DNA of 64,000 bases. It comes from a virus. Lineage: Duplodnaviria; Caudoviricetes. The stretch is taken from IMG/VR virus record IMGVR_UViG_3300034073_002120; one strand, written 5' to 3'. Position numbers and translations under genes: made by a program. The notes under the pieces are model-generated. The model was not told the DNA's origin and did not search any database. It saw only the letters and a list, made by a program, of their open reading frames with translations. Position 1 is the first letter of the stretch. Each line of letters begins with the position of its first letter. This document shows positions 24,074 to 52,686 of this stretch, piece after piece.

Positions 24074-25030
24074 TTATTTCCAATTAAAATTATTACCCAT
24101 ATGTCCCCATTTGGATGTTTCTGCGTAAGATATATTTCGTAAATCTAAAAAATCAATAATTCCATTTGGTGATAAGTCATATCCTTGTACCTCATACAAT
24201 CGAAGACCGGTTTCAACATTTATACCACTATCATTTCCTTTTATTCTTGCTTGAATAGGTTGTGTTTGGTTATTAGAATAACTTAATTCCACTAATGCGT
24301 ATTGTAATCCATATTGTTTCAAAGAATCAACAGCTATTCTTCTAGCCATATATCCTGCACATCTATCTAATTTAGTAGCATCTTTTCCACTATACGAACC
24401 ACCACCTAACGGAATTCTGGGACCATAATTATCAATTACATTTTGTTTACCTGATGCACCTACTCCATTTATCAACCCACCATTAGACCAATCACCATTT
24501 GAATTACAATATAATTTATTCAGATGAAAATTTGTAGTATCAAAATATTCTTTTATAATTGTTTCCAATTCTAATGTGGTAGTATTTTCAAACGATGCCA
24601 CAACATCTACCCAATCTCCATTTATTGTGATTTGAGTTTTACCTTCAAACGGAAATTGTGTATAAATAAATTTATTTAATTCACGAGTATAATGATATTC
24701 AAAAGGTAAGTAAGTTTCAGTCTCTTTGGTTGCGTAACCTATCGATATTCCAAATTTATTTATATGAGAAATTTTATTAATATTCTTTAATACAATATTA
24801 ACGTTTTCTATATTAGAAATGTTATAAACAATTTCAATTATTTCTGAATCAGATAAATGTCCATCACTTGCAACTTCTCCAATAATATTTAAAACACCAA
24901 ATCCACCACTCACTTGAATATTACATTGCGTGTACGGGTCTTGTTCTAAATATTTATCAAATATTGTGTCAGATATAATATCACACAATTTATCTGGATG
25001 TTTAGGTGATATGAATTCTGATGTTCTCAT
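24074..25030 (-). CDS. metK: S-adenosylmethionine synthetase homolog with degenerate active site
   Basis: HPDKLCD, GYATKET, GKTQIT, GGGSYSGKDATKLDR; GAGDQG motif absent. Confidence 0.8.
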   Translation of the reverse strand: MRTSEFISPKHPDKLCDIISDTIFDKYLEQDPYTQCNIQVSGGFGVLNIIGEVASDGHLSDSEIIEIVYNISNIENVNIVLKNINKISHINKFGISIGYATKETETYLPFEYHYTRELNKFIYTQFPFEGKTQITINGDWVDVVASFENTTTLELETIIKEYFDTTNFHLNKLYCNSNGDWSNGGLINGVGASGKQNVIDNYGPRIPLGGGSYSGKDATKLDRCAGYMARRIAVDSLKQYGLQYALVELSYSNNQTQPIQARIKGNDSGINVETGLRLYEVQGYDLSPNGIIDFLDLRNISYAETSKWGHMGNNFNWK

Positions 25031-25280: not shown

Positions 25281-26456
25281 TTAAAATGAAAAAAATTTAT
25301 TTATTGTTTCCTTATCAACTCTACTCTCCTTTCGCATCTCATCAATTGGTTTTAGTAATTCATCATATCCATCTATTGGTTCACCAACATACTCATGACA
25401 ATATGATGCTCGTTGATACATTGTCTTATACACCTCTGAATGGTCATTATTATCGTTTCTAATCTTTCCGTTAAATAAAGTAGGTTTCCAACTTTCGGTA
25501 TGAATATTTCGATAAATACCCAACGCAGGATTGATAGTTTTAGTGTAATACTTTGCATGCATATTTTTAAGAATACCACCACTCCATTCAGATATTTTAC
25601 TACCAATACTCATTCCTTGATAATCTGGATGAACTACGATTCTACTTTCTCTGAATACTTTGAATCCACCATTCTTACCCAAATGTCTTCCAATTACATT
25701 TATTGCTACAGGTTTATCGTTCCATTCAAATAGAAGATAGATGTAGGTTTTGTTTGCGTTTTGTGTTAGATAATGATGTTCTTTGAAGAAGTCCCAAGCT
25801 TCAGGTTCAACCCTACTAACTGATAAAGTGATTTCCGGTCTCCCTTGCCGAAGATAGTCAGGTCTTTCGAACCCGCCTCCTTTTGATGGTGAATATATCC
25901 AATCCGGCATTATCCACTCCATAATATCAAAGTGACAGGATGCTAAGATAATCTTTTTTCCTTCCCTACGAATGTATTTTTGTAATGCGAAACTCATTGC
26001 CTTTGCAACATCTCTATCAACAACCGATGTGTATTCATCAATTAAAATAGTATCACCATCTTTTGCAGATGAAACTAAATATGCAAGATATGCACGATAT
26101 TGTTCTCCATTACTTAATAAACGAAACGGTCTTAACCAAGTGGGAACTGATGATAATCCTATCGATGTTAGGACTCTTGTTGCCTCTTCTGGTTCTAACC
26201 AATCAAAATTAGATATAAGTGGTTTATCTTCATCAAACTTAACATCTTTACTACCACCCAATTCTTTTAATATAGTTGATTTACCACTACCACTTCCGCC
26301 ATATATGACACCAATATTCCAATCAAACGAATTTAATCCATCTAAATTCATAGGAATTGTAACTTGTGTTTCTTCTCTATTTTGTATATCAAACGCATTA
26401 TACACATATTCGGTGTATTTATCGTTTTGTATTTTAGATGTAAGTGTGATATTCAT
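25281..26456 (-). CDS. ABC-type ATPase fused to GNAT acetyltransferase (COG2401-like)
   Basis: GGSGSGKST, LSNGE, IDEYTSVVDR, then SRIVVHPDYQGMSIG. Confidence 0.85.
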   Translation of the reverse strand: MNITLTSKIQNDKYTEYVYNAFDIQNREETQVTIPMNLDGLNSFDWNIGVIYGGSGSGKSTILKELGGSKDVKFDEDKPLISNFDWLEPEEATRVLTSIGLSSVPTWLRPFRLLSNGEQYRAYLAYLVSSAKDGDTILIDEYTSVVDRDVAKAMSFALQKYIRREGKKIILASCHFDIMEWIMPDWIYSPSKGGGFERPDYLRQGRPEITLSVSRVEPEAWDFFKEHHYLTQNANKTYIYLLFEWNDKPVAINVIGRHLGKNGGFKVFRESRIVVHPDYQGMSIGSKISEWSGGILKNMHAKYYTKTINPALGIYRNIHTESWKPTLFNGKIRNDNNDHSEVYKTMYQRASYCHEYVGEPIDGYDELLKPIDEMRKESRVDKETINKFFSF

Positions 26457-26457
26457 A

Positions 26458-27684
26458 TTAGTTACTTAGGGGTGCTTTAATTTTTGGATGTGAGGTATAT
26501 CCAACTAATTCAAAACAATCTGGTCTATAACTCATAATCTTTTCATCAAATGTTTTAGGACCTAAATGTTCTTTTACTTTGTGATGTAAATACCAATTTC
26601 GTTCGGTGATATTTACTGATGGTAATTCATAAGGTTCTCTTGTTCGTTTAGGTACTCCTGCCGAATCGAAATAGACCCCTTTAGCATAATCAGATTGTTC
26701 ATCAATATTATCACAAACATCACGATTCGGCTTATGATTTTCAAACCACCAATGCATTCGTTCTTCCAAAGTTAATTCTCTACCAATTTGTTCTTTAGCT
26801 TGTTCAATATGGTTTGAATACAAATGAACATCACCTAAATTACCAATCAACTCATCAGGTATCATATTTACCTCCTTTGCAATAATTTCTAATAACAAAC
26901 CATATGATGCAATATTGAATGGTAATCCTAAAAATGTATCTACACTTCGTTGATTCCACATTAGGGAGATTGCTCTTTTAGGAACTGGATATAATTCATC
27001 AATTTCTTCGTGGTCACCTCTATGAAAATCAAAAGGTTCAAATACTTTATAAGTTTTAGACGCTAACTCCAATCGTTCCTCAATACTTAACTCTCTCGTA
27101 TAAACTTGAAATCCATAATGACAAGGTGGAAGAACCATTGACTCTAATGCACCAACATTCCAAGCACTAACCATCAATCTTCTACTATCGGGATTTGTTT
27201 TTAAATCATTGATTAGGTTTGCAATTTGGTCAATTGGATTTGGGTTTAAATCCCAATCCCATCCTCTCCATTGTTTACCATAAATTGGACCTAAATCACC
27301 CCAACGTTGGGCAAACTTTTCATCGGTTTTGATTTGTTGAATGAACTCCGATTGTGACCAAATAGCCTTTGAAGGTACATATGGTGGTTCATCTCTAAAA
27401 TTTATTTCATAATTTTTATATGCATCACCATCCCAAATGTGACAATCGTAATCTAATAGGAATTTGATGTTAGTATCTCCTCTTAAAAACCATAGGAGTT
27501 CGGCAACCATAACATTCCACGCCATTTTTTTTGTGGTTAATAATGGAAATCCCTCACTCATTTTATGACGAATCTGTCTACCAAAAACAGAAATAGTGCC
27601 AGTTCCGGTTCTATCTCCTTTTTCTACTCCATTATCTAATATGTCTTGTAATAATGCTTGATATGATTTATCTAAGTTGTTCAT
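26458..27684 (-). CDS. thyA: Thymidylate synthase with two insertions
   Basis: DRTGTGT, ELLWFLRG, PDSRRLMVSAWN, LPPCH, QRSVDTFLGLPFN. Confidence 0.95.
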   Translation of the reverse strand: MNNLDKSYQALLQDILDNGVEKGDRTGTGTISVFGRQIRHKMSEGFPLLTTKKMAWNVMVAELLWFLRGDTNIKFLLDYDCHIWDGDAYKNYEINFRDEPPYVPSKAIWSQSEFIQQIKTDEKFAQRWGDLGPIYGKQWRGWDWDLNPNPIDQIANLINDLKTNPDSRRLMVSAWNVGALESMVLPPCHYGFQVYTRELSIEERLELASKTYKVFEPFDFHRGDHEEIDELYPVPKRAISLMWNQRSVDTFLGLPFNIASYGLLLEIIAKEVNMIPDELIGNLGDVHLYSNHIEQAKEQIGRELTLEERMHWWFENHKPNRDVCDNIDEQSDYAKGVYFDSAGVPKRTREPYELPSVNITERNWYLHHKVKEHLGPKTFDEKIMSYRPDCFELVGYTSHPKIKAPLSN

Positions 27685-32784: not shown

Positions 32785-32793
32785 ATATTTATA
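32785..32793 (+). promoter_or_regulatory. Putative late promoter ATATTTATA for the plus-strand island
   Basis: Motif orientation flips with gene orientation. Confidence 0.55.
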
Positions 32794-32819
32794 TATGATT
32801 TTAAAACTAAAAATAACCG

Positions 32820-33524
32820 ATGATAATTTACACAAACGGATGTTCACATACGGCAGGTCATTGTATGAAACGTGATAAAACGTGGCCAATGATTGTTATG
32901 AAAAGTATTATAGGTTCTCAAGCATATTCGACAAATATTGTACCATCTATTATTAAAAAAGATTCGCACGTATTATACAATCAAGCAATGCATGGTGCAG
33001 GAAATGATTATATATTCCATAAAAGTTTAGAAACTATTTTGGCATTGATACATAGTGGTAATAAACCAGATTATGTAATCATTCAGTGGTCTGGTCCAAA
33101 TCGTAGAATGCACTCTGATGAAGATGGTAAGTATGTATTTGTAAACCCGTGGGATAATTCACATTTAGGAGTAAAATTTGAACCTATGGGTAGTCAACAT
33201 ACATTACATTATATGTTTGCGTTACAAGAAGTTTTAAAAAAACATAATATAGAATATTGGTTTTTTAATTATATGGAATTGTCAAAATTGGTTAAAAAAT
33301 CAAATGTATATAATGAAATGGATTTAACAAGAATATTAGATTTTAATTCAAATATTACTATGTTTGATGGGTTAATAGATTTTTTTAAATTAAATGAAAT
33401 GAATTGTGATGTGGGTGGTCATCCAAATGAACTTGGTAATTATTTTATAGGTAAACATATCGTTGATAAACTTGGATATGATTGTATAGATTATTCTAAA
33501 TTTTACAATACACTATTCATATAA
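32820..33524 (+). CDS. SGNH/GDSL-fold hydrolase or acyltransferase
   Basis: YTNGCSHTAG, GAGND, GGHPNELGN; ends NTLFI. Confidence 0.6.
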   Translation: MIIYTNGCSHTAGHCMKRDKTWPMIVMKSIIGSQAYSTNIVPSIIKKDSHVLYNQAMHGAGNDYIFHKSLETILALIHSGNKPDYVIIQWSGPNRRMHSDEDGKYVFVNPWDNSHLGVKFEPMGSQHTLHYMFALQEVLKKHNIEYWFFNYMELSKLVKKSNVYNEMDLTRILDFNSNITMFDGLIDFFKLNEMNCDVGGHPNELGNYFIGKHIVDKLGYDCIDYSKFYNTLFI

Positions 33525-34078
33525 TGGATATTAAATTATTTGATAATCGAATATTAGCACCTGCTAAATGTGGTACTAGACATTTACGAAAAATATTTAA
33601 AGATAAACGTTTTGATGTAAATAGCGATAATCTTAAACAAATAACACATATTGTTATACGAAACCCATATGAACATTTTGAATCTGCAATTCATACTGAA
33701 TATGTAAATTTTAAAAACACCCATAATTCAATTCAAAATATAGAACATATACTTCGTGGTACTATAAATGAAAATGGAATAGGTCATTGGAATCCTAAAA
33801 CTTATAGATTTTTGTATTCTATTTTTATACAAAATCCATCAATACAAATTATTGAATTATCAGATTTATCTAATTTTTTAGTATCAGAAGGATATTCAAT
33901 TCCACATAACAAATCAGAATATGATTGGTCTGAATTTGGGTTTAACATATCTAAAGAATTCGTTTTATTAGAATTCAAAAATAAGTTTAAACAAGAATTT
34001 GAAATGGTAAACAAAAAATTAGAAATTGAAATGATTTATTATACAAAATTATTAAATATGAGTATAGAAATACAATAA
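33524..34078 (+). CDS. Sulfotransferase-like protein
   Basis: PAKCGT (5'-PSB-like) and IRNPYEHFES (3'-PB-like). Confidence 0.55.
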   Translation: MDIKLFDNRILAPAKCGTRHLRKIFKDKRFDVNSDNLKQITHIVIRNPYEHFESAIHTEYVNFKNTHNSIQNIEHILRGTINENGIGHWNPKTYRFLYSIFIQNPSIQIIELSDLSNFLVSEGYSIPHNKSEYDWSEFGFNISKEFVLLEFKNKFKQEFEMVNKKLEIEMIYYTKLLNMSIEIQ

Positions 34079-34122
34079 TAAAACAACCTAGTGGAGTATC
34101 ACCACCTTTTTTCAGTTTACAT

Positions 34123-34131
34123 ATATTTATA
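34123..34131 (+). promoter_or_regulatory. Putative late promoter ATATTTATA
   Basis: 20 nt upstream of the Hint-domain gene. Confidence 0.55.
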
Positions 34132-34151
34132 GAGAAGAAATACTAAGACAT

Positions 34152-36419
34152 ATGAAGGGAACATTTTTTTCAGCAGATTTTATTAAAGATACTACTGGCA
34201 ATTTAAGATTAATGGAAGTAAATACTGATACCGGTTGTGTACCAAATGGACTTTCTTTTTTAGATTACACAAATTTTATAGAAATACTATCTGCTTCAGC
34301 TATAACTGAATTACATACAATTCACAAAGAAATTCATACAGATATTGTAGCAGAATTATCACAAAGTATATTTTCAAACGCACCATTTATAATATCGTTT
34401 GATTCTACAATTGAGGAAGCTGGTACTATTTATCCAACTGCAATAACTGATAGTTCTACAAAATTTATCTTACGTTTTGCGTATGATGAAGCATCCATTT
34501 TTGATTCCGAATATGCTAAAAGTGTATTAGGACCATTACAATTATTTACAGAAAATAATGATACTGCATCAATTGTAGAATATTCGTTTTCATCATCCGT
34601 ACAAGGATTTGAATTTGATAATTTACCAAAAGATTTTAATACTACAAACATACCAGATGTGGCAGTTAAAGATACATCTGCAAATACAACACATCCAATA
34701 TCATTTTATAAGATTGGTAAATCATCTGAAACAACGGATGATAGATGGAGTGAATTCACTGGTTCATTATCCGATGATAAATTAATTATTAAATTTTACG
34801 AAGATGCTTCGGAAACAAAAGTAACATCGGTTCGTTCATTTAATATTATTTATGGTAGTAATTTAGATTTAATAAACGTTGGAAATTATACAACAGAAGG
34901 ATTATTTGTAAAACCAACATCAATTGAATACGATGATACACAAATAGCAAATGAGATTGATGTAAAACACTATTATGAATTAACAACAAATTATCCAAAA
35001 TTTACAAATGTTTATAATTGGGGTGGTATATTCGAAGAAGAAGAAATTATTAAAGCAGATGGTACTACCATATTGATTGGAAGTGCATCAGTTGGAGATG
35101 AATTTAAATCTTATTTTATAAATGGAGCACCTGATACCGATGTGGTTTCTACTTTTATGGCGTGGTCACATGCTGGTTCAGAATTACCATCTGGTTCATA
35201 TGCTACTAGTTCTGTTTTAATCAATAAAATAGAACAACCCCTTTTATACAATCTGGCATTTCATTTAACTATGGAAGATGGTTCTGAATTTAGAGCATCT
35301 GGTGGAGTTCATTTGTTAGTACATGATATTGATTTAAATTGTATTCGTTATGAATCAATAGCAAAATTAGATGAAACTAAACATCAGTTAATTAATTTAA
35401 CAGGTGGATTAATCAATATTGATTCAATTGTAATAGAAATATTAGATGGTGATTATAAAACATATATTATTGATATGGAGACATCTGATACTTATTTCTT
35501 ATCAAATGGAGAATTAAGTGTTAAGATTGTTACACATAACTGCTTCCCTGCTGGAACTAAAATTACTTTAGCAGATGGTACTCAAAAGAATATTGAAGAT
35601 TTATTATTAACTGATAAAATCTTAACATATAACGAATTTACAGGTGAAAAAACAGAAGGTGTTATTGGGAATATCGTAAAGAAAAAAGAACATCTATTAA
35701 TCAGACACAAAACTGATGATGGTAATGAAGTTAAATCTACTGCATTACATAAGTTCTATGTTAAAGGTAAAGGATGGATTGCTGCACAAGATATTACATT
35801 AAATGATATTCTAATTAATAGAAATGGCAATGAAACTATTGTAACTGAAAAGGAAACGATTGTTGGTGAGGTTGAGGTTTATCATATTTTAGATGTTAAA
35901 GATAATCACACATATTATGCTGAAAACTTATTAGTTCATAACTTTAAATATAGTGGTGGTTCTTGCTTTGTTGCTGGAACTAAGGTAGTTATGGGAGATG
36001 GTTCTCAAAAGAATATTGAAGATGTAGTAATTGGTGATGAGGTACTTTCATTTAATGAATCAACTTTACAAAATGAAGTTAAAAAAGTAATTGGTTTAAA
36101 AACTCCAATTCACAACGATTTAGTTAAATACGAATTTGCAAATCAAACTTCAATAGTATGTACGTTTGACCATCCATTCTATGTTGGTGATTTAGAATTG
36201 GCATCTTATACTCCATTCTTAACAAACAAACGTTACGAATTAGATAAAGAAGTTAAACAAATCAAAACTGGTGATATGGTTTACTTATCAAATGGTGTAA
36301 GTAGAACTGCTATTAAAGATATAATAGAGTTAGATGAGAAAGATACTCAAACTTATATCATAACAGTCGAAGATAATCACAATTTTTACGCTAACCAAAT
36401 TTTAGTACATAATAAATAA
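34152..36419 (+). CDS. ATP-grasp-like N-terminal domain plus three tandem Hint (intein-like/BIL) domains
   Basis: ADFIKDTTGNLRLMEVNTDTG; Hint1 G292-N463, Hint2 C464-N597, Hint3 C605-N754. Confidence 0.8.
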   Translation: MKGTFFSADFIKDTTGNLRLMEVNTDTGCVPNGLSFLDYTNFIEILSASAITELHTIHKEIHTDIVAELSQSIFSNAPFIISFDSTIEEAGTIYPTAITDSSTKFILRFAYDEASIFDSEYAKSVLGPLQLFTENNDTASIVEYSFSSSVQGFEFDNLPKDFNTTNIPDVAVKDTSANTTHPISFYKIGKSSETTDDRWSEFTGSLSDDKLIIKFYEDASETKVTSVRSFNIIYGSNLDLINVGNYTTEGLFVKPTSIEYDDTQIANEIDVKHYYELTTNYPKFTNVYNWGGIFEEEEIIKADGTTILIGSASVGDEFKSYFINGAPDTDVVSTFMAWSHAGSELPSGSYATSSVLINKIEQPLLYNLAFHLTMEDGSEFRASGGVHLLVHDIDLNCIRYESIAKLDETKHQLINLTGGLINIDSIVIEILDGDYKTYIIDMETSDTYFLSNGELSVKIVTHNCFPAGTKITLADGTQKNIEDLLLTDKILTYNEFTGEKTEGVIGNIVKKKEHLLIRHKTDDGNEVKSTALHKFYVKGKGWIAAQDITLNDILINRNGNETIVTEKETIVGEVEVYHILDVKDNHTYYAENLLVHNFKYSGGSCFVAGTKVVMGDGSQKNIEDVVIGDEVLSFNESTLQNEVKKVIGLKTPIHNDLVKYEFANQTSIVCTFDHPFYVGDLELASYTPFLTNKRYELDKEVKQIKTGDMVYLSNGVSRTAIKDIIELDEKDTQTYIITVEDNHNFYANQILVHNK

Positions 36420-36429
36420 GGATTTCACT

Positions 36430-36567
36430 ATGGCACAAATATATAAAACATTTACTAAAAGTGATTTGGACAACAAACAAGTTGTAACAACTACACCAAC
36501 TATAAATCAACAAGTTAATGTCATTTTAACTAATTTTATCCAATACATTAAGGATAAACATATGTAA
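36430..36567 (+). CDS. 45-aa peptide
   Basis: MAQIYKTFTKSDLDNKQVVTTTPTINQQVNVILTNFIQYIKDKHM fills the gap between two genes. Confidence 0.6.
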   Translation: MAQIYKTFTKSDLDNKQVVTTTPTINQQVNVILTNFIQYIKDKHM

Positions 36568-36581
36568 TTAAACTTACTTAA

Positions 36582-37088
36582 ATGGTTATATTTTCTAAAG
36601 AAGAGTGTGAGTATATAAAGTCATTTTATTCATTATACGATGAAGTTGATGGTATGGATACTCACACTCTGAATGGCATTCAAATAAAATTCAGAAAAGG
36701 TAGTTCTGCCAAATTTGTAACAATTGATAATTCTGAACTAAAGAATTTTCTCTTACAAAAACTTACACCCTTAAAGGTAAAAAATATACCTACCATAAAA
36801 ATTATGAAATATGGTAAAGGTGGTAGTTTGGCTAAACATCAAGATTTTTCCAAATACGGAGTTGATATAATTTACAAAACTTTATTAGTTCAATTATCAG
36901 AATCATCTGATTATATAGGAGGTGATTTAATTGTAGAAAATACTCCGCAATCTAGAGTAATCGGTTCAATAACGTCTATATCACCTACTGCGGAACATGA
37001 AGTAACTATGTTAGAAGATGGTGAACGATATTCATTAGTTCTGTTTTTACATGAAAGTGATTTTGATATTTCAAAAAATATAATTTAA
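36582..37088 (+). CDS. 2OG-Fe(II) oxygenase
   Basis: HQD, GGDL, HEV...RYSLV; ends SKNII. Confidence 0.85.
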   Translation: MVIFSKEECEYIKSFYSLYDEVDGMDTHTLNGIQIKFRKGSSAKFVTIDNSELKNFLLQKLTPLKVKNIPTIKIMKYGKGGSLAKHQDFSKYGVDIIYKTLLVQLSESSDYIGGDLIVENTPQSRVIGSITSISPTAEHEVTMLEDGERYSLVLFLHESDFDISKNII

Positions 37089-37474
37089 TGTTTAAAAAAT
37101 ATAATTTTGAATCAAGAGGAATAGGAATTATTTCATCTACATCAATTACATCCAATACCTTTATTGGTAATTACTTTACAAAATCAGAAACTATATCGAC
37201 AGAAAGTAGACTCATTTACGAAGGATGGGTTGAAACTAACCCATTAGGTAGATATTTAAATCATAATAGAATTCCAAATTGTAATTTAGAATTAGATGGT
37301 GATGCTATTAAAATATATACTAATAGAGATATTAATCAATTTGAAGAATTAACTATAAATTATTTAGATATTATCAAAATAATAGAATTACCGATGCGAT
37401 TAATAAACAAATATGGAGTATTTGATTTTGATTATATTGAAGAAAAAGTAATTATAAAACAAAATTTAATATGA
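37088..37474 (+). CDS. SET-domain protein
   Basis: GRYLNHNRIPNC, RDINQFEELTINY; ends KQNLI. Confidence 0.8.
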   Translation: MFKKYNFESRGIGIISSTSITSNTFIGNYFTKSETISTESRLIYEGWVETNPLGRYLNHNRIPNCNLELDGDAIKIYTNRDINQFEELTINYLDIIKIIELPMRLINKYGVFDFDYIEEKVIIKQNLI

Positions 37475-38214
37475 AACTAATTTATAGTTACTCCACTAAA
37501 ATGGGTAATTACGATGATAATGATTGGATATTACTTTTATACAAAGGTGCAATTACTCGTTCAAAACAATTGGGATATACTATTAAATTATATGGTTGTG
37601 ATTTTACTTATCAAAAATTGAAGGATGTAGTAGATGAATATGTAGATATTACAAATGAAGAGTTTGTTCTTACTGATGATTTAAAATTATACATACATTC
37701 AAAAGAAGACTTAGATTGTGTTACAATCGATGGTGATATAATATTAGAATCTAAATTAAATTTGCCAACTAATTGTGATATGATATATGAAATAAAGGGA
37801 GTGGTTAAATCTAAAACACAAACTAAATTTCAAAGATATTTAAATATTTTTAAAGATTATGATATTACATCTAATATAGATTATTTTAACTATAATACAC
37901 TATACGCATGTAGTGTTGGTATTCTTAAATTCAATAATAAAGAAACAAAGGAATTATTTATATCCACTTATTATAAATTTAGAAAATACTTTATAGATAA
38001 TATTAAATCAGATAATCGTCTATTTAAAAAAGATGACCCTGCAATAATTGTATGTGAATATATGTTTGCATGTTTGTTAGAAGGCACCGAATATGTTGGT
38101 AAAGAATGTAATAATATAAATGATTATACTCATTATATGTCATTAACTAAATTTACACCTACCGCATGGAAACATGTTGATTCTATCTTAAATCCTACAA
38201 CTAAATTGTTATAA
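37471..38214 (+). CDS. GT-A-like nucleotidyl/glycosyltransferase-like protein
   Basis: TIDGDIIL DxD motif, YTHY; paralog of the next gene; ends TTKLL. Confidence 0.5.
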   Translation: MKLIYSYSTKMGNYDDNDWILLLYKGAITRSKQLGYTIKLYGCDFTYQKLKDVVDEYVDITNEEFVLTDDLKLYIHSKEDLDCVTIDGDIILESKLNLPTNCDMIYEIKGVVKSKTQTKFQRYLNIFKDYDITSNIDYFNYNTLYACSVGILKFNNKETKELFISTYYKFRKYFIDNIKSDNRLFKKDDPAIIVCEYMFACLLEGTEYVGKECNNINDYTHYMSLTKFTPTAWKHVDSILNPTTKLL

Positions 38215-38915
38215 TGAATTTAATATATACATTTGATAAAACTGTAAATACAGATTCACATAAAATAGATGTATTAAAATCGTATTATACGAATAGCATT
38301 AATTCTGCTAAACTATTAGGATATAAAACTGAATTATATTCTAATTGTGATTGGTTTGATGATTTAGTAGATATTAAACATATAATAACCGATGAATTTG
38401 TTTTTTGGGATGCATTCAAAACTATACCACTAAATAGAAATGATGATTATATATTAGTAGATGGTGATGTTATATTTCATAATAGATTACCAAAGTTAGA
38501 TGATTCAGTAGATGTATATTTTGATGGATGGGAGAGTTGGTTAAGTATTTATGATGATTGTGTAAATGAATTAGATGGGTTAGGTATATCGGATATAATA
38601 CCTGAATGGAAAGTCGAAAAACAAAGAGTTATGAACATAGGAACTCTTAAAATTAATAATAAAGAATTAAAAGAATTATATTTAGACAGATGGTTTAAAT
38701 TATATGAATTTTGTAAAGTTAGAAAAGATACTTTAAAAACATTTGATTTATGTTGTACCATAACATCTCAATATCTTTTAACGTTATTATCAAATCAATA
38801 TAATATTCATAATTTTTCGGATAGATTACGAGTACCAAATAGTTATTATACACATTATGTAGGTAAAGAGAAATATAATTTACCGATTCCGAAAATCAAT
38901 AAAACGCTGATATAG
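38214..38915 (+). CDS. GT-A-like nucleotidyl/glycosyltransferase-like protein
   Basis: LVDGDVIF DxD motif, MNIGTL, YTHYVG; ends NKTLI. Confidence 0.5.
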   Translation: MNLIYTFDKTVNTDSHKIDVLKSYYTNSINSAKLLGYKTELYSNCDWFDDLVDIKHIITDEFVFWDAFKTIPLNRNDDYILVDGDVIFHNRLPKLDDSVDVYFDGWESWLSIYDDCVNELDGLGISDIIPEWKVEKQRVMNIGTLKINNKELKELYLDRWFKLYEFCKVRKDTLKTFDLCCTITSQYLLTLLSNQYNIHNFSDRLRVPNSYYTHYVGKEKYNLPIPKINKTLI

Positions 38916-38917
38916 TT

Positions 38918-39334
38918 ATGATAAATTTAAAAGTAGCAACAAAGGTAGAAGTTAAAGAATCACCGATACATGGAATGGGTGTATTTGCTATTGAAGAAAT
39001 CAAAGCAGGTGAAGTGATTGAGGAATGTCATTTAATAACACTTCCATTTAAACCAGGCGAACAATCATTTTTTCTATATGATTATAAATTCAATTATCCG
39101 GCAGAAGGTAAGTTAGAAGAATATGTTTTACCATTAGGTAATGGGTGTATATATAATCATTCTGATACTAATAATGCATATTGGAGAAACCACCCACAAC
39201 ATAAGGCATTTCAGTTTGTTGCTATCAAAGATATAAAAGTAGGTGAAGAAATTTGTACTTATTATGGTGATGCTAATTATTGGAAATTAGTAGAAACATT
39301 TAAAACTAAAAATATCAAATTATCTATAATATGA
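38918..39334 (+). CDS. SET-domain protein-lysine methyltransferase
   Basis: SPIHGMGVFA, YNHSDTNNA, KDIKVGEEICTYY; ends KLSII. Confidence 0.9.
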   Translation: MINLKVATKVEVKESPIHGMGVFAIEEIKAGEVIEECHLITLPFKPGEQSFFLYDYKFNYPAEGKLEEYVLPLGNGCIYNHSDTNNAYWRNHPQHKAFQFVAIKDIKVGEEICTYYGDANYWKLVETFKTKNIKLSII

Positions 39335-40584
39335 AAATATATGTACACCACTATTATAGTAAAATACTTTTTTATAAATTAGCACATAATAGTAATAATA
39401 AATTTATTGAAGTTGATTTAAATACCAATATTGGTTCTGCATATTGTAATTATAATGGTGTAGATATTGAATTTTATTTTAATCCAGAAATAAATGATAA
39501 TACTGATGGGTTACATTTATTAGATTTTTTTTCAGCATTACTACAAAGATATACAGATTCTACCTATATGGAATTGAATATTGGTGATGTACAAGATACA
39601 CCAATAGTTAGTAAATTTGTAGAACTATTAGAAAATAAAAAAAATTGGATAATTACATTATTTAGAACTGAGCGTATTTTAACAAAAAGTGATTTAGATA
39701 CTACCATACACATAGATGAGTTAGAATCACAAATACAATTGTTAAAAAATCACAAAATAATATCTGATAATTTATTTATAAATGATAATATTAGATATAG
39801 ATTTCCAAACATTTATTTTGCATTTACAAATACAATATGGCAATGGAATGAAATAATTGGAATACGATGGTATTATGAATACAAACAAATATTTGAGAAA
39901 TTAAATTTTGATTATGATTTAATGTATTCAGTTCGTAATCATAAAAAATATAGATGTGATATATTAAAAGGTTTGGCTAAACTAAATAATAAAAAATTAT
40001 TATTACAAAGAACCAATTCAGCACCGGTAAGTAAATTTTATAACACATATGAAAATGAATTATCAGAAATAGATAATATTCATTTTAATTCAATTAATGG
40101 TACTACCGATTTTGAAAATATAACTTTAATACAATATCAAAGTGGATTGACTTGGGATTTATGGTTTAGAATGCTATCAAAAGCCAAAATTCAAATATTA
40201 GATGAAAGTTGGGCTCATTCTAAAGATGAATTTCAAAATCAATATTTTTCTGAAAAAACATTAGGATTAGTTCTTGCAAATATACCATTTGTATCTACTC
40301 ATTCATATCCATTAGAAATGTTACAAAAAGTATTAAACATTTCAGAACATCCGTTTTATAATGAAGCAAAATTATATAAAGGTAATGTAGATTTATTTGT
40401 ATCGTTTATTGATTCCTTTTTAAAAAATTTTGATGAGAACTATAAAAAAATAAAGGAATGGACAAATGAATGTCATATTGCGTTTGTTAAAAAAATAGAA
40501 TCGGAAAATACTATGTTAGATATGTTATTAGATGATTTTAAAACAGAAAATGATAAAATTAATTCAAATAAAAAGTTTTTGTAA
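39331..40584 (+). CDS. Putative glycosyltransferase-like protein (GT10-like FSEKT motif)
   Basis: QILDES...FSEKT...IPFV; ends NKKFL. Confidence 0.4.
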   Translation: MKIYVHHYYSKILFYKLAHNSNNKFIEVDLNTNIGSAYCNYNGVDIEFYFNPEINDNTDGLHLLDFFSALLQRYTDSTYMELNIGDVQDTPIVSKFVELLENKKNWIITLFRTERILTKSDLDTTIHIDELESQIQLLKNHKIISDNLFINDNIRYRFPNIYFAFTNTIWQWNEIIGIRWYYEYKQIFEKLNFDYDLMYSVRNHKKYRCDILKGLAKLNNKKLLLQRTNSAPVSKFYNTYENELSEIDNIHFNSINGTTDFENITLIQYQSGLTWDLWFRMLSKAKIQILDESWAHSKDEFQNQYFSEKTLGLVLANIPFVSTHSYPLEMLQKVLNISEHPFYNEAKLYKGNVDLFVSFIDSFLKNFDENYKKIKEWTNECHIAFVKKIESENTMLDMLLDDFKTENDKINSNKKFL

Positions 40585-41063
40585 TGAAATTATATAACGA
40601 TACTGAATTAAAATTTTTAAATTCATTTTGGGAAAATGTAGATTATCGAAAGTTTGATGATAGAAGTTATGAATTTGCTGTTATGATGAATAACGAGATG
40701 GATATAACTACTAAATTATTAGATTGGTTTGAAAATGAAAGTGGTGAAAAACTTATACATAAGAAATATAGTTTAATAATACACAAATATAATGTTGGTG
40801 ATTATTTCGATAAACACATAGATTCGGTTGAACGTAATTATAAAAATAGAGCATATGTTGTTGGGTTTCATATAAACGATGAATATGATGGTGGTGATTA
40901 TATATTATATAACCCAAACGAAATCATAGATAAAGGACCAGGCGTACCTTACTGTTTTAAATCAAATAGATTGCATGAAATAACAAAAATAACAAATGGT
41001 ATTAGAAAAAGTGCATTGATTTTTATCAATCACGAAGATTTAGTAAAAAAGAATTTATTATGA
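40584..41063 (+). CDS. 2OG-Fe(II) oxygenase
   Basis: HID, YDGGD, HEI...RKSA; ends KKNLL. Confidence 0.85.
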   Translation: MKLYNDTELKFLNSFWENVDYRKFDDRSYEFAVMMNNEMDITTKLLDWFENESGEKLIHKKYSLIIHKYNVGDYFDKHIDSVERNYKNRAYVVGFHINDEYDGGDYILYNPNEIIDKGPGVPYCFKSNRLHEITKITNGIRKSALIFINHEDLVKKNLL

Positions 41064-41539
41064 TAAATTTTGAATTAAATATTTCAGATTATAACCAAAT
41101 TGAAGAACTTAGTATATTAAGATATAATGAAGTATTATCCGATGATATTAAAAAACTAATATATTTTTTTAATGAAGAATATAAATGGGATGGTATGTTT
41201 ATATTTGATGATGTTCAAACTAGAATAAATAATGGTCATCATTTGTTTATTTTATATTATGGTAATAACGCAATTGGTTATGTGTTTTATGAACCAAAAG
41301 AGAATAACGAATTTTATTTATATAATTTGTATGTTACAAATTGTTACAAAAGACCAAATTATTCAGCACAATGGTTTGTAAATAAAACTATTGGAATGTT
41401 GCCAATACCTATTTCGAAAATATCATGTATATGTGAAGATTGGCATGTTGCAGCTCATAATGTATTTACTATAAATGGATTTGAAACAAAAAAAAAGAGT
41501 CACCAAACTGATGACTCTTTACAAAAAATGAGAGATTAA
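41060..41539 (+). CDS. GNAT-fold acetyltransferase-like protein
   Basis: AIGYVFY, YLYNLYV, WHVAAHNVFTINGF. Confidence 0.45.
   Translation: MINFELNISDYNQIEELSILRYNEVLSDDIKKLIYFFNEEYKWDGMFIFDDVQTRINNGHHLFILYYGNNAIGYVFYEPKENNEFYLYNLYVTNCYKRPNYSAQWFVNKTIGMLPIPISKISCICEDWHVAAHNVFTINGFETKKKSHQTDDSLQKMRD
41488..41520 (-). terminator. Intrinsic terminator for the sHSP transcript
   Basis: aaagagtca-tcagtttgg-tgactcttt plus T run. Confidence 0.75.
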
Positions 41540-41544
41540 AAAAA

Positions 41545-41967
41545 CTACTTTACTTTTACTGAAATTTTCTTTTGTTTTGCTTCTGCTTTCTTTGGAATAG
41601 TAATCAATAAAATACCATTCTCTACTTCTGCAGATGTTTGTGTAATATCGTAATTAGATGAAATACGAATGTTGTGCTCTAATGTTGAAACCAAATTATT
41701 TTGGATTGAACCTTCGGAGTATAAACTTTCTGCCTTAATTTTTAATAAGTTTCCATCAACATCAATTGAAATATTTTCTTTTGGATGTCCTACCACCTGA
41801 AACGCTAATTCGTATGAATCATCATTCTGTTTAGTATATCCAACCGCAGTATCTCGTAATGTTGTTGATGTTTTCCAAGTAGGTAAATCCTTCTCAAATA
41901 AATCTAATAAGTGTCCTAAATTTGCTGTGTACATAATCTTTTCTTTTTTAGTTAAACAATACATCAT
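41545..41967 (-). CDS. Small heat-shock protein (Hsp20)
   Basis: Alpha-crystallin pattern, AEVENGILLITIPK. Confidence 0.88.
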   Translation of the reverse strand: MMYCLTKKEKIMYTANLGHLLDLFEKDLPTWKTSTTLRDTAVGYTKQNDDSYELAFQVVGHPKENISIDVDGNLLKIKAESLYSEGSIQNNLVSTLEHNIRISSNYDITQTSAEVENGILLITIPKKAEAKQKKISVKVK

Positions 41968-43044: not shown

Positions 43045-43625
43045 TCTAATACTATGTTTATTTGTTTTTTTACTTTATATTCTAAAATTGTACAAGTTAT
43101 TCGCATCGTATCACCTTTCATTTTGTAGATTGGTGCAATGACCGTATTTATTTCCCCGTTTGTGCCGGCATATGAAGATGTATTTATAGTTGGTACTAAC
43201 TCATCCTTCCAAGTAGTAATAGGGGGTAAATTAACGTAATTACGTGAACCATCGAGGGGATTGATATATAGTTTGGTTACGTTTGATATTGTATCACCTT
43301 TTAATAACCACCAAAATAAATTATTTTCCCATTCTACCTTTATTGGTTCAACTGAATTTTTAACATTACCAGTAATTCGATGTATTGTTTGTGTAGATGT
43401 TGAAATAAGTTGTAAATGATAATATCCGTTTTTATCTATTGGTAATCTACCATCCAATTCTAATGTTGGTGTTGGTTTGGTGGATGGGTTAGATAGCTGT
43501 GTAGTTTGTTGGGTTGGCCCCCATTGCGGTTCTCCAATATCCTCTTTACTACAAGCCGTAAATAGTAAACAGCCGAATACTAACCATTTAATTCTCATAA
43601 CAATTTGTTTAAGATTGCTTTCCAA
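43041..43625 (-). CDS. Putative lipoprotein
   Basis: Lipobox LFTA-C. Confidence 0.65.
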   Translation of the reverse strand: MESNLKQIVMRIKWLVFGCLLFTACSKEDIGEPQWGPTQQTTQLSNPSTKPTPTLELDGRLPIDKNGYYHLQLISTSTQTIHRITGNVKNSVEPIKVEWENNLFWWLLKGDTISNVTKLYINPLDGSRNYVNLPPITTWKDELVPTINTSSYAGTNGEINTVIAPIYKMKGDTMRITCTILEYKVKKQINIVLE

Positions 43626-44080
43626 TTCGGATACTCATTCCAAGTTTCGGTTTCATATGCCCAACCAAATCGTAACAACTCACCTCTAAACTCACCCGCT
43701 CCGTTTTTCAATCTATCATCGATTAAGTAATCACCACCTAAAAGGTCTTTTCGGTGAGTAACAATCATTTTCTTGTGGAATAAATCACCAAAGTATTCTT
43801 CAATCCAATAACGTTTATCAGAAGCAGAATCGGGATTTCCCCACGGGGCTGCGGTAGCGATGAATAATTCGTACTTACCACTTTCTGCCAATTTCTTAAC
43901 TGCCTCAATTGCCCCTTCGTATGGAGGAGGATTTCGGAATATACCAGGAATATGGTCAGGACATTTCTTATACTTTTCAATTAAATGTGGATGACGTTCG
44001 AACCATCTATCAAACTCTGCTTTCAAATCCACTAACACACCGTCCATATCGATGTAAACTATCTTTTTCTTTTCACTCAT
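43595..44080 (-). CDS. 5'(3')-deoxyribonucleotidase (HAD, NT5C family)
   Basis: VYIDMDGVLVD, ATAAPW, GDYLIDDR. Confidence 0.9.
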   Translation of the reverse strand: MSEKKKIVYIDMDGVLVDLKAEFDRWFERHPHLIEKYKKCPDHIPGIFRNPPPYEGAIEAVKKLAESGKYELFIATAAPWGNPDSASDKRYWIEEYFGDLFHKKMIVTHRKDLLGGDYLIDDRLKNGAGEFRGELLRFGWAYETETWNEYPNWKAILNKLL

Positions 44081-47337: not shown

Positions 47338-47697
47338 TTAAATTAACTTTTTGGTTTCTCTTTTCTTCCTCGTGGGTTTCTTATAGTTAAGTATGTCTTC
47401 TTTATATTTTACAATTTTACCACACATCTCATATTCCTCTTTTTCTTTGAACCATTCTAAACAATGGTCTAAGGCTTCGATGTATTCTTCTTTTGGAACT
47501 AATGATATTGCCGATGCATTTGGATGAACTAAGATAGCAACTTCATCCCATCCTTTTAATCCGGCGTTGTGGATGTTTTGCGATACTTGATTCATTACAT
47601 CGAATCCTCGAGTTTCTAAAAACTTTTGAACTCTTTTATCATTAGTTGGTTCTAAATATTTTCGCCAATCGATTGTTGTAAAGGTTCTTCTTTTCAT
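47338..47697 (-). CDS. Hypothetical protein with EEYExC motif
   Basis: 119 aa; ends TKKLI. Confidence 0.55.
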   Translation of the reverse strand: MKRRTFTTIDWRKYLEPTNDKRVQKFLETRGFDVMNQVSQNIHNAGLKGWDEVAILVHPNASAISLVPKEEYIEALDHCLEWFKEKEEYEMCGKIVKYKEDILNYKKPTRKKRETKKLI

Positions 47698-52293: not shown

Positions 52294-52686
52294 TTACATT
52301 TTATTTTCCTCATAGTGATGTATTCTATGACAATTGGCACATAATACATCACACTTTTCTATTTCCTTTAAGAACTTTTCTTTGGATACTGATAATTTAG
52401 AACTAGCCAAAGTGAATTCTTTTTTAGATGAATCTCTATGATGAAAATCTAAAGCTGCAGGATGTGAAAATCCACATTTACTACATTTAAGGTTTGATTT
52501 ATATTCTACATACCATTCCTTAAATTCTTTTCTTCTTTGAGATTGTCTTATTTTAGCTTTCTCTCTTTCCACTTCTTTATTTCGTTCATACCATTCATTT
52601 CTATATGAACGCATCTTATCAGCGTTTTGTTCTTTCCATTCTTTTGTTGCCATAATATATTCTTTAATATAAATATAGTATCTCAA
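52294..52686 (-). CDS. HNH endonuclease
   Basis: CSKCG, LDFHH, LCANCHRIHH; likely start MATKEW at 52653. Confidence 0.85.
   Translation of the reverse strand: MRYYIYIKEYIMATKEWKEQNADKMRSYRNEWYERNKEVEREKAKIRQSQRRKEFKEWYVEYKSNLKCSKCGFSHPAALDFHHRDSSKKEFTLASSKLSVSKEKFLKEIEKCDVLCANCHRIHHYEENKM

Follow-up and report, generated by a model that had tools for sequence, protein, structure and literature searches.

A putative post-translational tailoring cassette built around an ATP-grasp-like Hint protein in uncultured aquatic phages

We analyzed a 64,000-nt stretch of a tailed virus (IMG/VR record IMGVR_UViG_3300034073_002120; Duplodnaviria, Caudoviricetes), hereafter the window, to which all coordinates refer unless another locus is named, and examined a block of 12 plus-strand open reading frames (ORFs; p1 to p12) between positions 32820 and 41539. 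Overall, we propose that this block is a hypervariable, self-contained post-translational tailoring cassette, similar to the clusters for RiPPs (peptides that ribosomes make and that are modified after translation), that decorates the C-terminal tail of its own protein p3. We give this reading a probability of about 0.5. The block is one functional unit. Its core consists of a ATATTTATA-type promoter, p3 (an ATP-grasp-like domain, a first Hint domain called Hint0 and a variable tail) and a partner protein of 43-53 aa (p4 here). The variable part in this phage comprises two SET methyltransferases, two 2-oxoglutarate-dependent Fe(II) (2OG) oxygenases, one GT-B glycosyltransferase (GT), two DUF6734 proteins, and SGNH-like, sulfotransferase-like and GNAT proteins. 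If this is true, large aquatic phages of a widespread group produce peptides or proteins that they decorate with enzymes of their own.

The p3-p4 core

The features of the core are as follows.

34152..34988, plus strand: p3 residues 1-279, ATP-grasp-like domain (glutathione synthetase/glutathionylspermidine synthetase type), by structure matches
35016..35540, plus strand: p3 residues 289-463, Hint0, bacterial intein-like (BIL)/intein fold without N-terminal Cys, ending in His-Asn (VTHN463)
35541..35942, plus strand: p3 residues 464-597, Hint1, with Cys1 (C464), a TALH block and LLVHN597, followed by Phe
35943..35963, plus strand: p3 linker FKYSGGS (7 residues) between Hint1 and Hint2; this and the final Lys form the variable p3 tail
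35964..36419, plus strand: p3 residues 605-755, Hint2, with Cys1 (C605), a TFDH block, ILVHN754, a terminal Lys and the stop
36430..36567, plus strand: p4, 45-aa conserved partner protein (MA..YKTF...NFIQYIKDKHM), untagged

The model of the p3 N-domain (predicted local distance difference test, pLDDT, 84.6) matched 3o98/2io8 in Foldseek at 7e-5. Residues 1-279 gave VIA Z scores of 6-7.8 over 190-223 residues to glutathione synthetase (GS), YgiC, GspS, trypanothione synthetase, Cp1B and RimK, and they had no Pfam match and no sequence-level family match. Across 29 sequences, the most divergent at 23% identity, residues D9, E22 and N24 do not vary, and they could form the Mg-ATP-binding acidic/amide triad. 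Their spacing, D9...E22-x-N24, would match that of the ATP-grasp Mg2+ site.

The initial annotation, which was made from the letters of the window, had placed one Hint gene in the block; the fold was confirmed, and the protein contains three Hint domains rather than one. Hint0 (residues 289-461) superimposes on the BIL domain 2lwy with Z 18.9 and a root-mean-square deviation of 1.5 A over 138 residues, and on BUBL1 BIL2 with Z 18.8 (Foldseek 1.8e-9). It starts in FEEEEII and has no Cys nucleophile; H462 and N463 are conserved at 90% or more in 29 homologues. Hint1 matches Pfam PT-HINT at 1.4e-16, and Hint2 matches Intein_splicing at 3.7e-13 and Hint at 3.7e-12. We rejected a canonical intein. 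The residue that follows the domain is Cys after Hint0 only, where it is Cys1 of Hint1, and is Phe after Hint1 and Lys after Hint2. Moreover, canonical inteins are insertions in conserved host proteins, whereas the flanks of the p3 Hints are hypervariable.

A p4 homologue of 43-53 aa lies directly 3′ of p3 in 58 of 60 nonredundant loci. The Hint protein and the 45-aa ORF, both already noticed in the initial annotation, form the core of the cassette and are kept together in relatives.

A C-terminal tag shared by unrelated enzymes

The second line of evidence is a short C-terminal tag, K/polar-x-[LIF]-[LI]-COOH, scored in the family counts as two terminal hydrophobic residues after a K or polar residue. 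It ends 8 of the 12 ORFs of the block (hereafter also the island) and 7 of the 77 other window ORFs (p = 3e-5); it is missing from p3 and p4 and, in this phage, from p2 and p12. Counted over nonredundant family members, the tag was present in all GT-B proteins of the p10 type (15/15), all DUF6734 proteins (24/24) and all sulfotransferase-like proteins (10/10), as well as in 71/74 2OG oxygenases, 37/39 radical S-adenosylmethionine (rSAM) enzymes, 18/22 GDSL-like proteins and 10/13 SET proteins. It was found in 3/62 p3 proteins, 2/17 HD proteins, 0/20 hsp20 proteins and 0/21 EF-hand proteins. Nearly all p10 homologues (116/117) keep it, ending in two hydrophobic residues with variable residues before them. 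Within families the tag persists at 25% identity, and its codons vary between genes. The 2OG homologue of a cyanophage has no tag. The tag is a protein-level signal common to unrelated enzymes. A nucleotide-level artefact of gene coupling was rejected, since the codons differ and equally coupled neighbour genes are untagged.

Tag-like ends also occur elsewhere in the window. KRNLI is the end of a 572-aa B12-binding rSAM protein encoded some 19 kb away from the island (60367-62085, minus strand). Homologues of it, at 74-82% identity, lie directly upstream of p3 in the relatives L016, L017, L049 and L050, and most of them are tagged. The protein is probably a functional part of the cassette. Two further conserved proteins, both on the minus strand, are one of 161 aa (43595-44080) that ends in LNKLL and whose distinct homologues all end in LL (12/12), and one of 119 aa (47338-47697) with the tag-like end TKKLI.

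Conservation and variability among relatives

About 90 loci follow a common plan, with the promoter, p3, the 43-53-aa ORF and then the enzymes, all adjacent. The comparison of synteny and gene presence that had been suggested as a check came out on the side of one coherent cassette. The enzyme set differs from locus to locus. The 2OG oxygenases are nearly universal, and rSAM enzymes, SET and DUF6734 proteins, GT-B proteins, GDSL esterases, sulfotransferases, adenosine phosphosulfate (APS) kinase, carbamoyltransferase and Trp halogenases are present at some loci and absent from others; GT25 proteins occur in related islands.

Homologues of p10 number at least 281 and those of p3 at least 621, and neither family is annotated. 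The p3 homologues fall into at least 445 representative clusters (50% identity) and are essentially absent from cultured phages and cellular genomes. Among 50,697 GenBank phage records, no match was obtained for the island (megablast) or for the p3 N-domain, p10, p8 and a neighbouring 587-aa protein (tblastn), and p5 hit distant cyanophage genes only, with neither the tag nor the cassette. When 185,579 species genomes were scanned by pattern, one 2.8-kb contig came back, from a Cyanobium metagenome-assembled genome, that is probably binned phage DNA. The cassette occurs in a large lineage of myovirus-like phages, both freshwater and marine, that are uncultured. The literature searched contained no account of a system like this, and a paper on bS21-encoding phages (PMC9723584) mentions neither the promoters nor the cassette genes.

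Contigs from four other studies reproduce the island and span its right-hand junction, so it did not arise in assembly. Coverage of the flanks in other samples is 3-7 times as deep as that of the island and the contigs branch at 32796 and 41490, which suggests that strains keep the promoter and the hairpin (see below) and differ in what lies between. Some of these strains have the whole content between 32796 and 41490 replaced. In the strain of run X16, p11 and p12 are separated by an additional 681 nt, roughly the length of one gene (41064-41090).

The cassette is co-directional with its neighbours in most relatives. It runs in the same direction as the hsp20, HD and UvdE genes in L003, L004, L008, L016 and L048, stands upstream of a 109-aa gene, HD and hsp20 in L003, L004, L008 and L016, and follows hsp20 as here, uninverted, in L048, the closest relative by its flanks. 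Since relatives carry the cassette co-directionally, the inversion seen in the window is a local event; it is an in-place rearrangement of this lineage with no evident functional role and no general meaning. An invertible switch was rejected because flanking inverted repeats are missing and the matches found are AT-rich chance ones.

Several islands show features of their own. In the distant relative L009, the cassette lies directly before a 1307-aa fibre/spike gene with an S74 chaperone domain (L009:12768-16691) and includes an APS kinase (L009:932-1366); APS kinases recur beside sulfotransferase-like genes in several islands. The marine (TARA) island L099, whose p3 tail is Cys-rich, has an rSAM/SPASM enzyme (L099:209-1213). 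Enzymes of this type are typical of thioether-crosslinked peptides.

The p3 tail and the enzyme set

Downstream of the His-Asn of Hint0, p3 homologues fall into three classes. The first has 1-3 extra Hints with linkers of 0-12 residues and ends in K, KL or KV; the second has Cys- and aromatic-rich peptides, 25-65 aa long and hypervariable, on a CxxC..CGxxxC..CxxC frame; and the third has short Pro/Lys tails such as PAPPPKL. The linker of the first class, FKYSGGS here, is hypervariable in both length and sequence. Because the joined linkers of this class (AP|RGIPKL, SP|RLYTPKL) resemble the Pro/Lys tails, the extra Hints look like BIL insertions in the tail. Self-cleavage is a known property of BIL A-type domains, as is their location in hypervariable parts of proteins (PMC7765530).

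A variable core next to tailoring enzymes, as expected of a RiPP cluster, is what we found: a hypervariable tail follows Hint0, and the enzymes adjoin it in the loci that share the common plan. The sign that the enzymes act on this core is co-variation alone. Trp halogenases occur in 5 of the 8 islands with Trp in the p3 tail or linker versus 0 of the 52 without it (hypergeometric p ~1e-5, our own estimate from a statistic that ignores kinship). Halogenase and Trp-bearing tail coincide in L009 and the P0378 contig (4 Trp each) and in L012 (4 Trp, three halogenase genes). Halogenase and Trp-bearing linker coincide in L048, where the linker is a single W, and in L104 (WSF), which was looked up as a prediction that was borne out. 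The p4-type partner has no Trp in the halogenase islands. A linker that starts with [FIL]K is associated with SET (p = 0.006, again ignoring kinship). The proteusins offer a precedent for a flavin halogenase whose substrate is a RiPP with a large, enzyme-like leader (PMC10858898). The co-variation of the enzyme content with the C-terminal tail of p3 is the sole substrate signal found, and this tail is the best lead to the target.

Two further ideas were rejected. FKYSGGS itself is not a conserved bioactive product, given that the linker is hypervariable and its Gly run differs in length; the 45-aa ORF is not the variable substrate, being conserved and free of Trp in the halogenase islands.

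Proposed mechanism and alternatives

We provide a putative mechanism for the cassette. Hint0 has lost its N-terminal nucleophile and kept its C-terminal His-Asn, and in this phage two more BIL-like Hints interrupt the tail. Through the common tag, all the enzymes would dock on a single receptor, for which p3 and p4 are the likeliest candidates. Once docked, they would act on one substrate made by the ribosome, in all likelihood the tail of p3 (here FKYSGGS...K), after which the Hint domains would excise the tail or join its pieces and the ATP-grasp domain would ligate or cap a carboxylate.

Several observations weigh against this proposal. The ATP-grasp assignment consists of middling Z scores (6-7.8) and one motif. 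The linker here has 7 residues and the tail about 8, and both are Gly-rich, a poor match for ten enzymes; linker length also varies like that of a plain spacer, FKYG(G)nS. Trp is present in the tail or linker of L084, L099 and L105 with no halogenase in view (the L105 contig is too short to score), rSAM and 2OG enzymes occur regardless of tail type, and the co-variation tests ignore phylogeny. GT, sulfotransferase, APS kinase, carbamoyltransferase and SGNH proteins are equally typical of glycan decoration. The sequences show how the cassette is built and conserved, that its enzymes are tagged, that it has its promoter motif in common with tail genes, and that halogenase co-varies with Trp. Docking, the identity of the substrate, the chemistry and the late timing are all points that we infer, and the receptor for the tag is hypothetical.

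In the alternative closest to the initial annotation, late-made enzymes would modify a surface protein of the virion, be it capsid, fibre or mucin-like, by hydroxylation, methylation, glycosylation, sulfation and acylation, with p3 and p4 as accessories. We find this possible and, on balance, unlikely. The promoter motif that the cassette has in common with baseplate and fibre genes fits it, and so does the island of L009 next to a fibre/spike gene. However, in this window and in most relatives the cassette sits among hsp20, HD and UvdE genes, with the nearest structural gene 15 kb away here; the enzyme repertoire tracks the p3 tail and is linked to no structural protein, and the invariant p3/p4 pairing and the tag are left unexplained. 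Of the late pathway for decorating a virion surface protein or peptide that the initial annotation had envisaged, one coherent protein- or peptide-tailoring cassette stands, and nothing ties its enzymes to a virion surface protein. The shared tag, the ATP-grasp-like domain and the strain-to-strain hypervariability had escaped that annotation.

A more elaborate form of the tail-decoration proposal, which we regard as speculative and clearly unlikely in its entirety, is a phage factory for ribosomal peptides in which the precursor is itself an enzyme (ATP-grasp plus nucleophile-less Hint). Tailoring enzymes would be recruited by their tag, read by the precursor or by the 45-aa partner in a reversal of the usual leader/RiPP recognition element logic. 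Asn cyclisation by a Hint domain would free the decorated tail, and the ligase would close or conjugate it; from Cys-rich variants of about 30 residues with six Cys, a cyclotide-like peptide could result. The ligase might instead join the tail to another protein.

The tag could instead be a sorting signal, like peroxisomal PTS1 or the C-terminal cargo peptides of encapsulins, that loads the enzymes into the capsid or a phage compartment; at the following infection they would be injected or would modify proteins of the host, with p3 as a self-processing packaged polyprotein. Non-structural enzymes behind a late-type promoter would suit this, as would one short C-terminal motif on unrelated enzymes, tagged proteins outside the island such as the rSAM protein at 60367-62085, and SET and 2OG enzymes as plausible modifiers of host proteins. 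Nevertheless, no receptor or compartment gene was recognised, the halogenase that tracks Trp in the p3 tail is left unexplained, and glycosyl- and sulfotransferases need nucleotide-sugars and 3′-phosphoadenosine-5′-phosphosulfate (PAPS), which suits cytoplasmic action during infection. Taken together, we consider this set of ideas improbable.

More doubtful still is a glycan or small-molecule pathway, acting for example on the host envelope, in which the tags hold a metabolon together. The combination meant here is similar to that of Nod factors: GT, sulfotransferase, APS kinase, carbamoyltransferase, acetyltransferase and esterase. The GT-B, DUF6734, sulfotransferase, SGNH and GNAT proteins of this island would fit such a pathway, as would the APS kinase, carbamoyltransferase and GT25 of related islands. 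SET proteins, prolyl 4-hydroxylase (P4H)-type 2OG oxygenases, rSAM/SPASM enzymes and Trp halogenases favour protein or peptide substrates, however, and so does the fact that a Hint protein with its variable tail invariably accompanies the enzymes.

That the block is a hyperplastic hotspot of unrelated accessory genes without common function, its motif a degron (it may be akin to ClpX signals of the basic-hydrophobic type, MuA's for example) or a side effect of coupled, AT-rich gene junctions, is very improbable: gene content does vary between strains and relatives, and K, N, I, L and F codons are common in an AT-rich genome, but the tag is almost absent from the equally AT-rich and equally coupled hsp20 and EF-hand genes, it has varying codons and persists in divergent family members, and the core, promoter and gene order are conserved.

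Comparison with known systems

The cassette is best filed as a RiPP or post-translational-modification-island kind of system, three parts of which have no described counterpart in the literature searched. It resembles RiPP clusters (proteusins; rSAM/SPASM Cys-rich peptides) in that a hypervariable C-terminal peptide adjoins a changing set of tailoring enzymes, in the types of these enzymes (halogenase, rSAM, 2OG, methyl-, glycosyl- and sulfotransferases), in an enzyme content that follows peptide composition, and in a large folded N-terminal part before the core. Proteusins likewise have a large enzyme-like leader, and a flavin-dependent brominase acts on a C-terminal Trp (PMC10858898). In contrast to these clusters, the leader here is a 460-residue ATP-grasp-like and Hint protein, release would be by its own Asn cyclisation rather than by a separate protease, recognition seems reversed, via a tag on the enzymes, and the core has about 8 residues and is split by two Hints. 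The cassette is also phage-encoded behind a late-type promoter, and is known from genes alone.

With BIL A-type domains and the BIL-Ubl-BIL (BUBL) loci of Tetrahymena (2lwy, 6tmm; PMC7765530), p3 shares the fold (Z ~19), a C-terminal His-Asn without a downstream nucleophile, and a place in hypervariable regions of non-conserved proteins. It differs in that its Hints are fused to an ATP-grasp-like domain, its first copy lacks Cys1, and the framed segment is a linker of 1-12 residues, not a ubiquitin-like domain, within a phage enzyme cassette. Tandem Hints that frame a short segment are a further likeness. The matches of p3 residues 1-279 to the ATP-grasp carboxylate-amine ligases GS, GspS, YgiC and Cp1B are consistent. 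However, Z reaches only 6-7.8 with no family match at the sequence level, and the domain begins with a normally C-terminal motif and would thus be permuted or truncated.

Short basic-then-hydrophobic C-terminal motifs on many unrelated enzymes are reminiscent of peroxisomal PTS1 (-SKL), encapsulin cargo-loading peptides and dockerin/docking domains. Here the motif is K-x-[LIF]-[LI], it is confined to one phage lineage, in one cassette and a few other genes, and no receptor or compartment was recognised for it. Virion modification islands include mycobacteriophage O-glycosylation, chlorovirus capsid glycosylation and vSET, and the mimivirus collagen hydroxylase/glycosyltransferase. The cassette has in common with them virus-encoded glycosyltransferases, SET proteins and 2OG hydroxylases that act on proteins, whereas it differs in having no adjacent structural substrate, an ATP-grasp-Hint core and a common enzyme tag.

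Unusual points are the single short C-terminal tag across more than 10 unrelated enzyme families, a putative precursor that holds a ligase-like domain plus its own cutting domains, and an enzyme set swapped between strains. Several dark families, namely those of the p3 N-domain, of the GT-B protein p10, of DUF6734 and of the 45-aa partner, are also placed here in a context that is linked to function. Possible uses are a docking tag that can be moved to other proteins, scaffolds from which peptides release themselves, and halogenases, hydroxylases and transferases that are new.

Enzyme genes of the block

The remaining ORFs of the block are listed below with their motifs and C-terminal ends.

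32820..33524, plus strand: p1, 234 aa, SGNH-like by motifs only (GCSHT, GAGND, GGHP); tag TLFI
33524..34078, plus strand: p2, 184 aa, sulfotransferase-like (PAKCGTR, RNPYEHFES); no tag in this copy
36582..37088, plus strand: p5, 2OG-Fe(II) oxygenase (HQD...H...RYS); tag KNII
37088..37474, plus strand: p6, SET-domain methyltransferase (NHNRIPN, EELTINY); tag QNLI
37471..38214, plus strand: p7, DUF6734 family (DGD); tag TKLL
38214..38915, plus strand: p8, DUF6734 paralogue of p7 (DGD); tag KTLI
38918..39334, plus strand: p9, SET-domain methyltransferase (YNHSDTNN, EEICTYY); tag LSII
39331..40584, plus strand: p10, GT-B-fold glycosyltransferase-like, phage-only family without a Pfam model; tag KKFL
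40584..41063, plus strand: p11, second 2OG-Fe(II) oxygenase (HID...H...RKS); tag KNLL
41060..41539, plus strand: p12, GNAT-like acetyltransferase; untagged

The two SET and two 2OG-Fe(II) genes named in the initial annotation were recovered by profiles and intact motifs. Pfam SET matched p6 at 2.4e-11 (44.4 bits) and p9 at 7e-14 (52.6 bits), against a cut-off of 22.4. The 2OG matches lie just under the Pfam cut-off of 27 (PF13640, 1e-4 and 23.7 for p5; 1.4e-5 and 26.4 for p11), with PHROG 61 at 1e-9 and 9e-9, respectively. The argument that SET enzymes favour protein over DNA substrates was upheld.

Atlas features (score 0.96) and structure (TM 0.60-0.66 to Sulfotransfer_1/2/4 clusters) support the sulfotransferase-like call for p2. 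Its homologues in other loci are tagged in 6/6 cases, and hhalign detected no relationship between the p2 family and the Sulfotransfer_2-like family of the islands. The GNAT call for p12 finds its support at the family level: its own match is weak (E 0.033), and Acetyltransf_1 is matched by 8 of 11 family members, at best at 8.6e-7.

Three other calls are qualified here. The supposed GT10-like gene, p10, has a GT-B fold (model pLDDT 90.9; Z 11-13.4 over ~295 residues to SenB, TarM, and chlorovirus and phage GTs), and its top structural matches are GT-B transferases without exception. For membership of the CAZy fucosyltransferase family GT10 itself, the support consists of Atlas feature scores of 0.80-0.81 to PF00852 clusters, and no GT10 chain is among the structural matches listed. 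The two genes called GT-A-like, p7 and p8, belong to DUF6734; their GT-A assignment is less secure and draws on a DxD motif (DGD) invariant in the family and on Atlas neighbours of the GT-A type. In the Atlas, p8 scores 0.97 against DUF6734 clusters, and GT8 and Nucleotid_trans clusters follow at 0.92-0.94; p7 is probably a GT-A-type transferase. As for the SGNH gene, p1 shows the motifs GCSHT, GAGND and D-x3-HP by eye and has no Pfam or PHROG profile match; one homologue, in L008, is tagged too. Profile searches of PDB sequences with p10, DUF6734 and the p2 family gave no match.

Strand, promoter-like motifs and hairpins

All ORFs of at least 100 aa outside 32820-41539 are on the minus strand, and the remaining plus-strand ORFs there are few and encode 46-68 aa; the block is thus the sole plus-strand gene block of the window, as first described. 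Its AT-richness and tight coupling are equally real. GC is 0.24-0.28 in the block versus 0.30-0.39 in the flanks, the GC skew switches sign within the block, and the junctions of the 12 ORFs are 1-4-nt overlaps or 2-14-nt spacers, with the sole exception of a 73-nt gap before p3. The promoter-like motifs and hairpins are as follows.

32785..32793, plus strand: promoter-like motif ATATTTATA, 26 nt 5′ of the p1 ATG
34090..34112, strand not set: weak hairpin with TTTTTT after it, 3′ of p2 and ahead of the second promoter; the scan called the minus strand
34123..34131, plus strand: promoter-like motif ATATTTATA, 20 nt 5′ of the p3 ATG
41494..41520, minus strand: hairpin with a 12-bp stem and a U-run, within the 3′ end of p12 (stop at 41539)

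Both copies of ATATTTATA that had been noticed ahead of cassette genes are present, the first within a divergent spacer that is also 5′ of a minus-strand 59-aa gene. The window holds 11 copies, which is no excess over the chance expectation of 6.9 +/- 2.4. All 11 are oriented in the sense of the genes around them and 10 are intergenic, although intergenic DNA makes up 13.5% of the window (binomial p = 2e-8). Genes preceded by the motif are the baseplate-wedge operon, a 1654-aa fibre-like gene, two more tail-module genes, an HNH endonuclease gene, p1 and p3. Among nonredundant relatives, TATTTATA stands 20-42 nt 5′ of the p3 start codon in 40/58 cases versus 4.5% of other genes. Late timing of the cassette is suggested by this promoter sharing alone; no RNA run was listed as containing the island.

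The motif is like the T4 gp55-type late promoter TATAAATA in being a short AT-rich box ~20-30 nt 5′ of the ATG of structural genes with no evident -35 element. However, the sense strand here reads (A)TATTTATA, the reverse complement of the T4 box, and the motif is therefore an element distinct from the T4 late box. A T4-type late promoter was rejected, as the coding strand reads ATATTTATA at 11/11 sites.

The terminator previously placed at 41488-41520 is a real hairpin (stability z = -3.7 and -4.3). It is not the boundary of the plus-strand unit: it lies inside p12, the U-run (9 U) appears on the minus-strand reading only (-14.2 versus -10.6 kcal/mol for plus), and the plus-strand sequence trailing it is UACAAAAAAU. 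Given the strand of the U-run and its location inside the last ORF, the hairpin is probably the intrinsic terminator of the convergent hsp20 gene (41545-41967). The hairpin at 34090-34112, read by inspection on the plus strand, may mark the end of a p1-p2 unit.

Neighbouring genes

The gene content of the AT-rich window includes baseplate wedge genes, lysins, PhoH, Hsp20, thymidylate synthase, S-adenosylmethionine (SAM) synthetase and carbamoyltransferase. Near the island, all on the minus strand, lie the genes for SAM synthetase (24074-25030), carbamoyltransferase (19999-21729) and a P-loop/GNAT fusion protein (25281-26456), which could supply or extend the tailoring chemistry, for example with SAM for the SET and rSAM enzymes. 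The HNH endonuclease gene (52294-52653, minus strand) has its own ATATTTATA 14 nt 5′ of the start and so the same promoter type as the tail genes. Thymidylate synthase (26458-27684, minus strand; 408 aa) has profile positions 1-227 stretched over ~300 residues and appears, from this alignment, to contain insertions or an additional domain.

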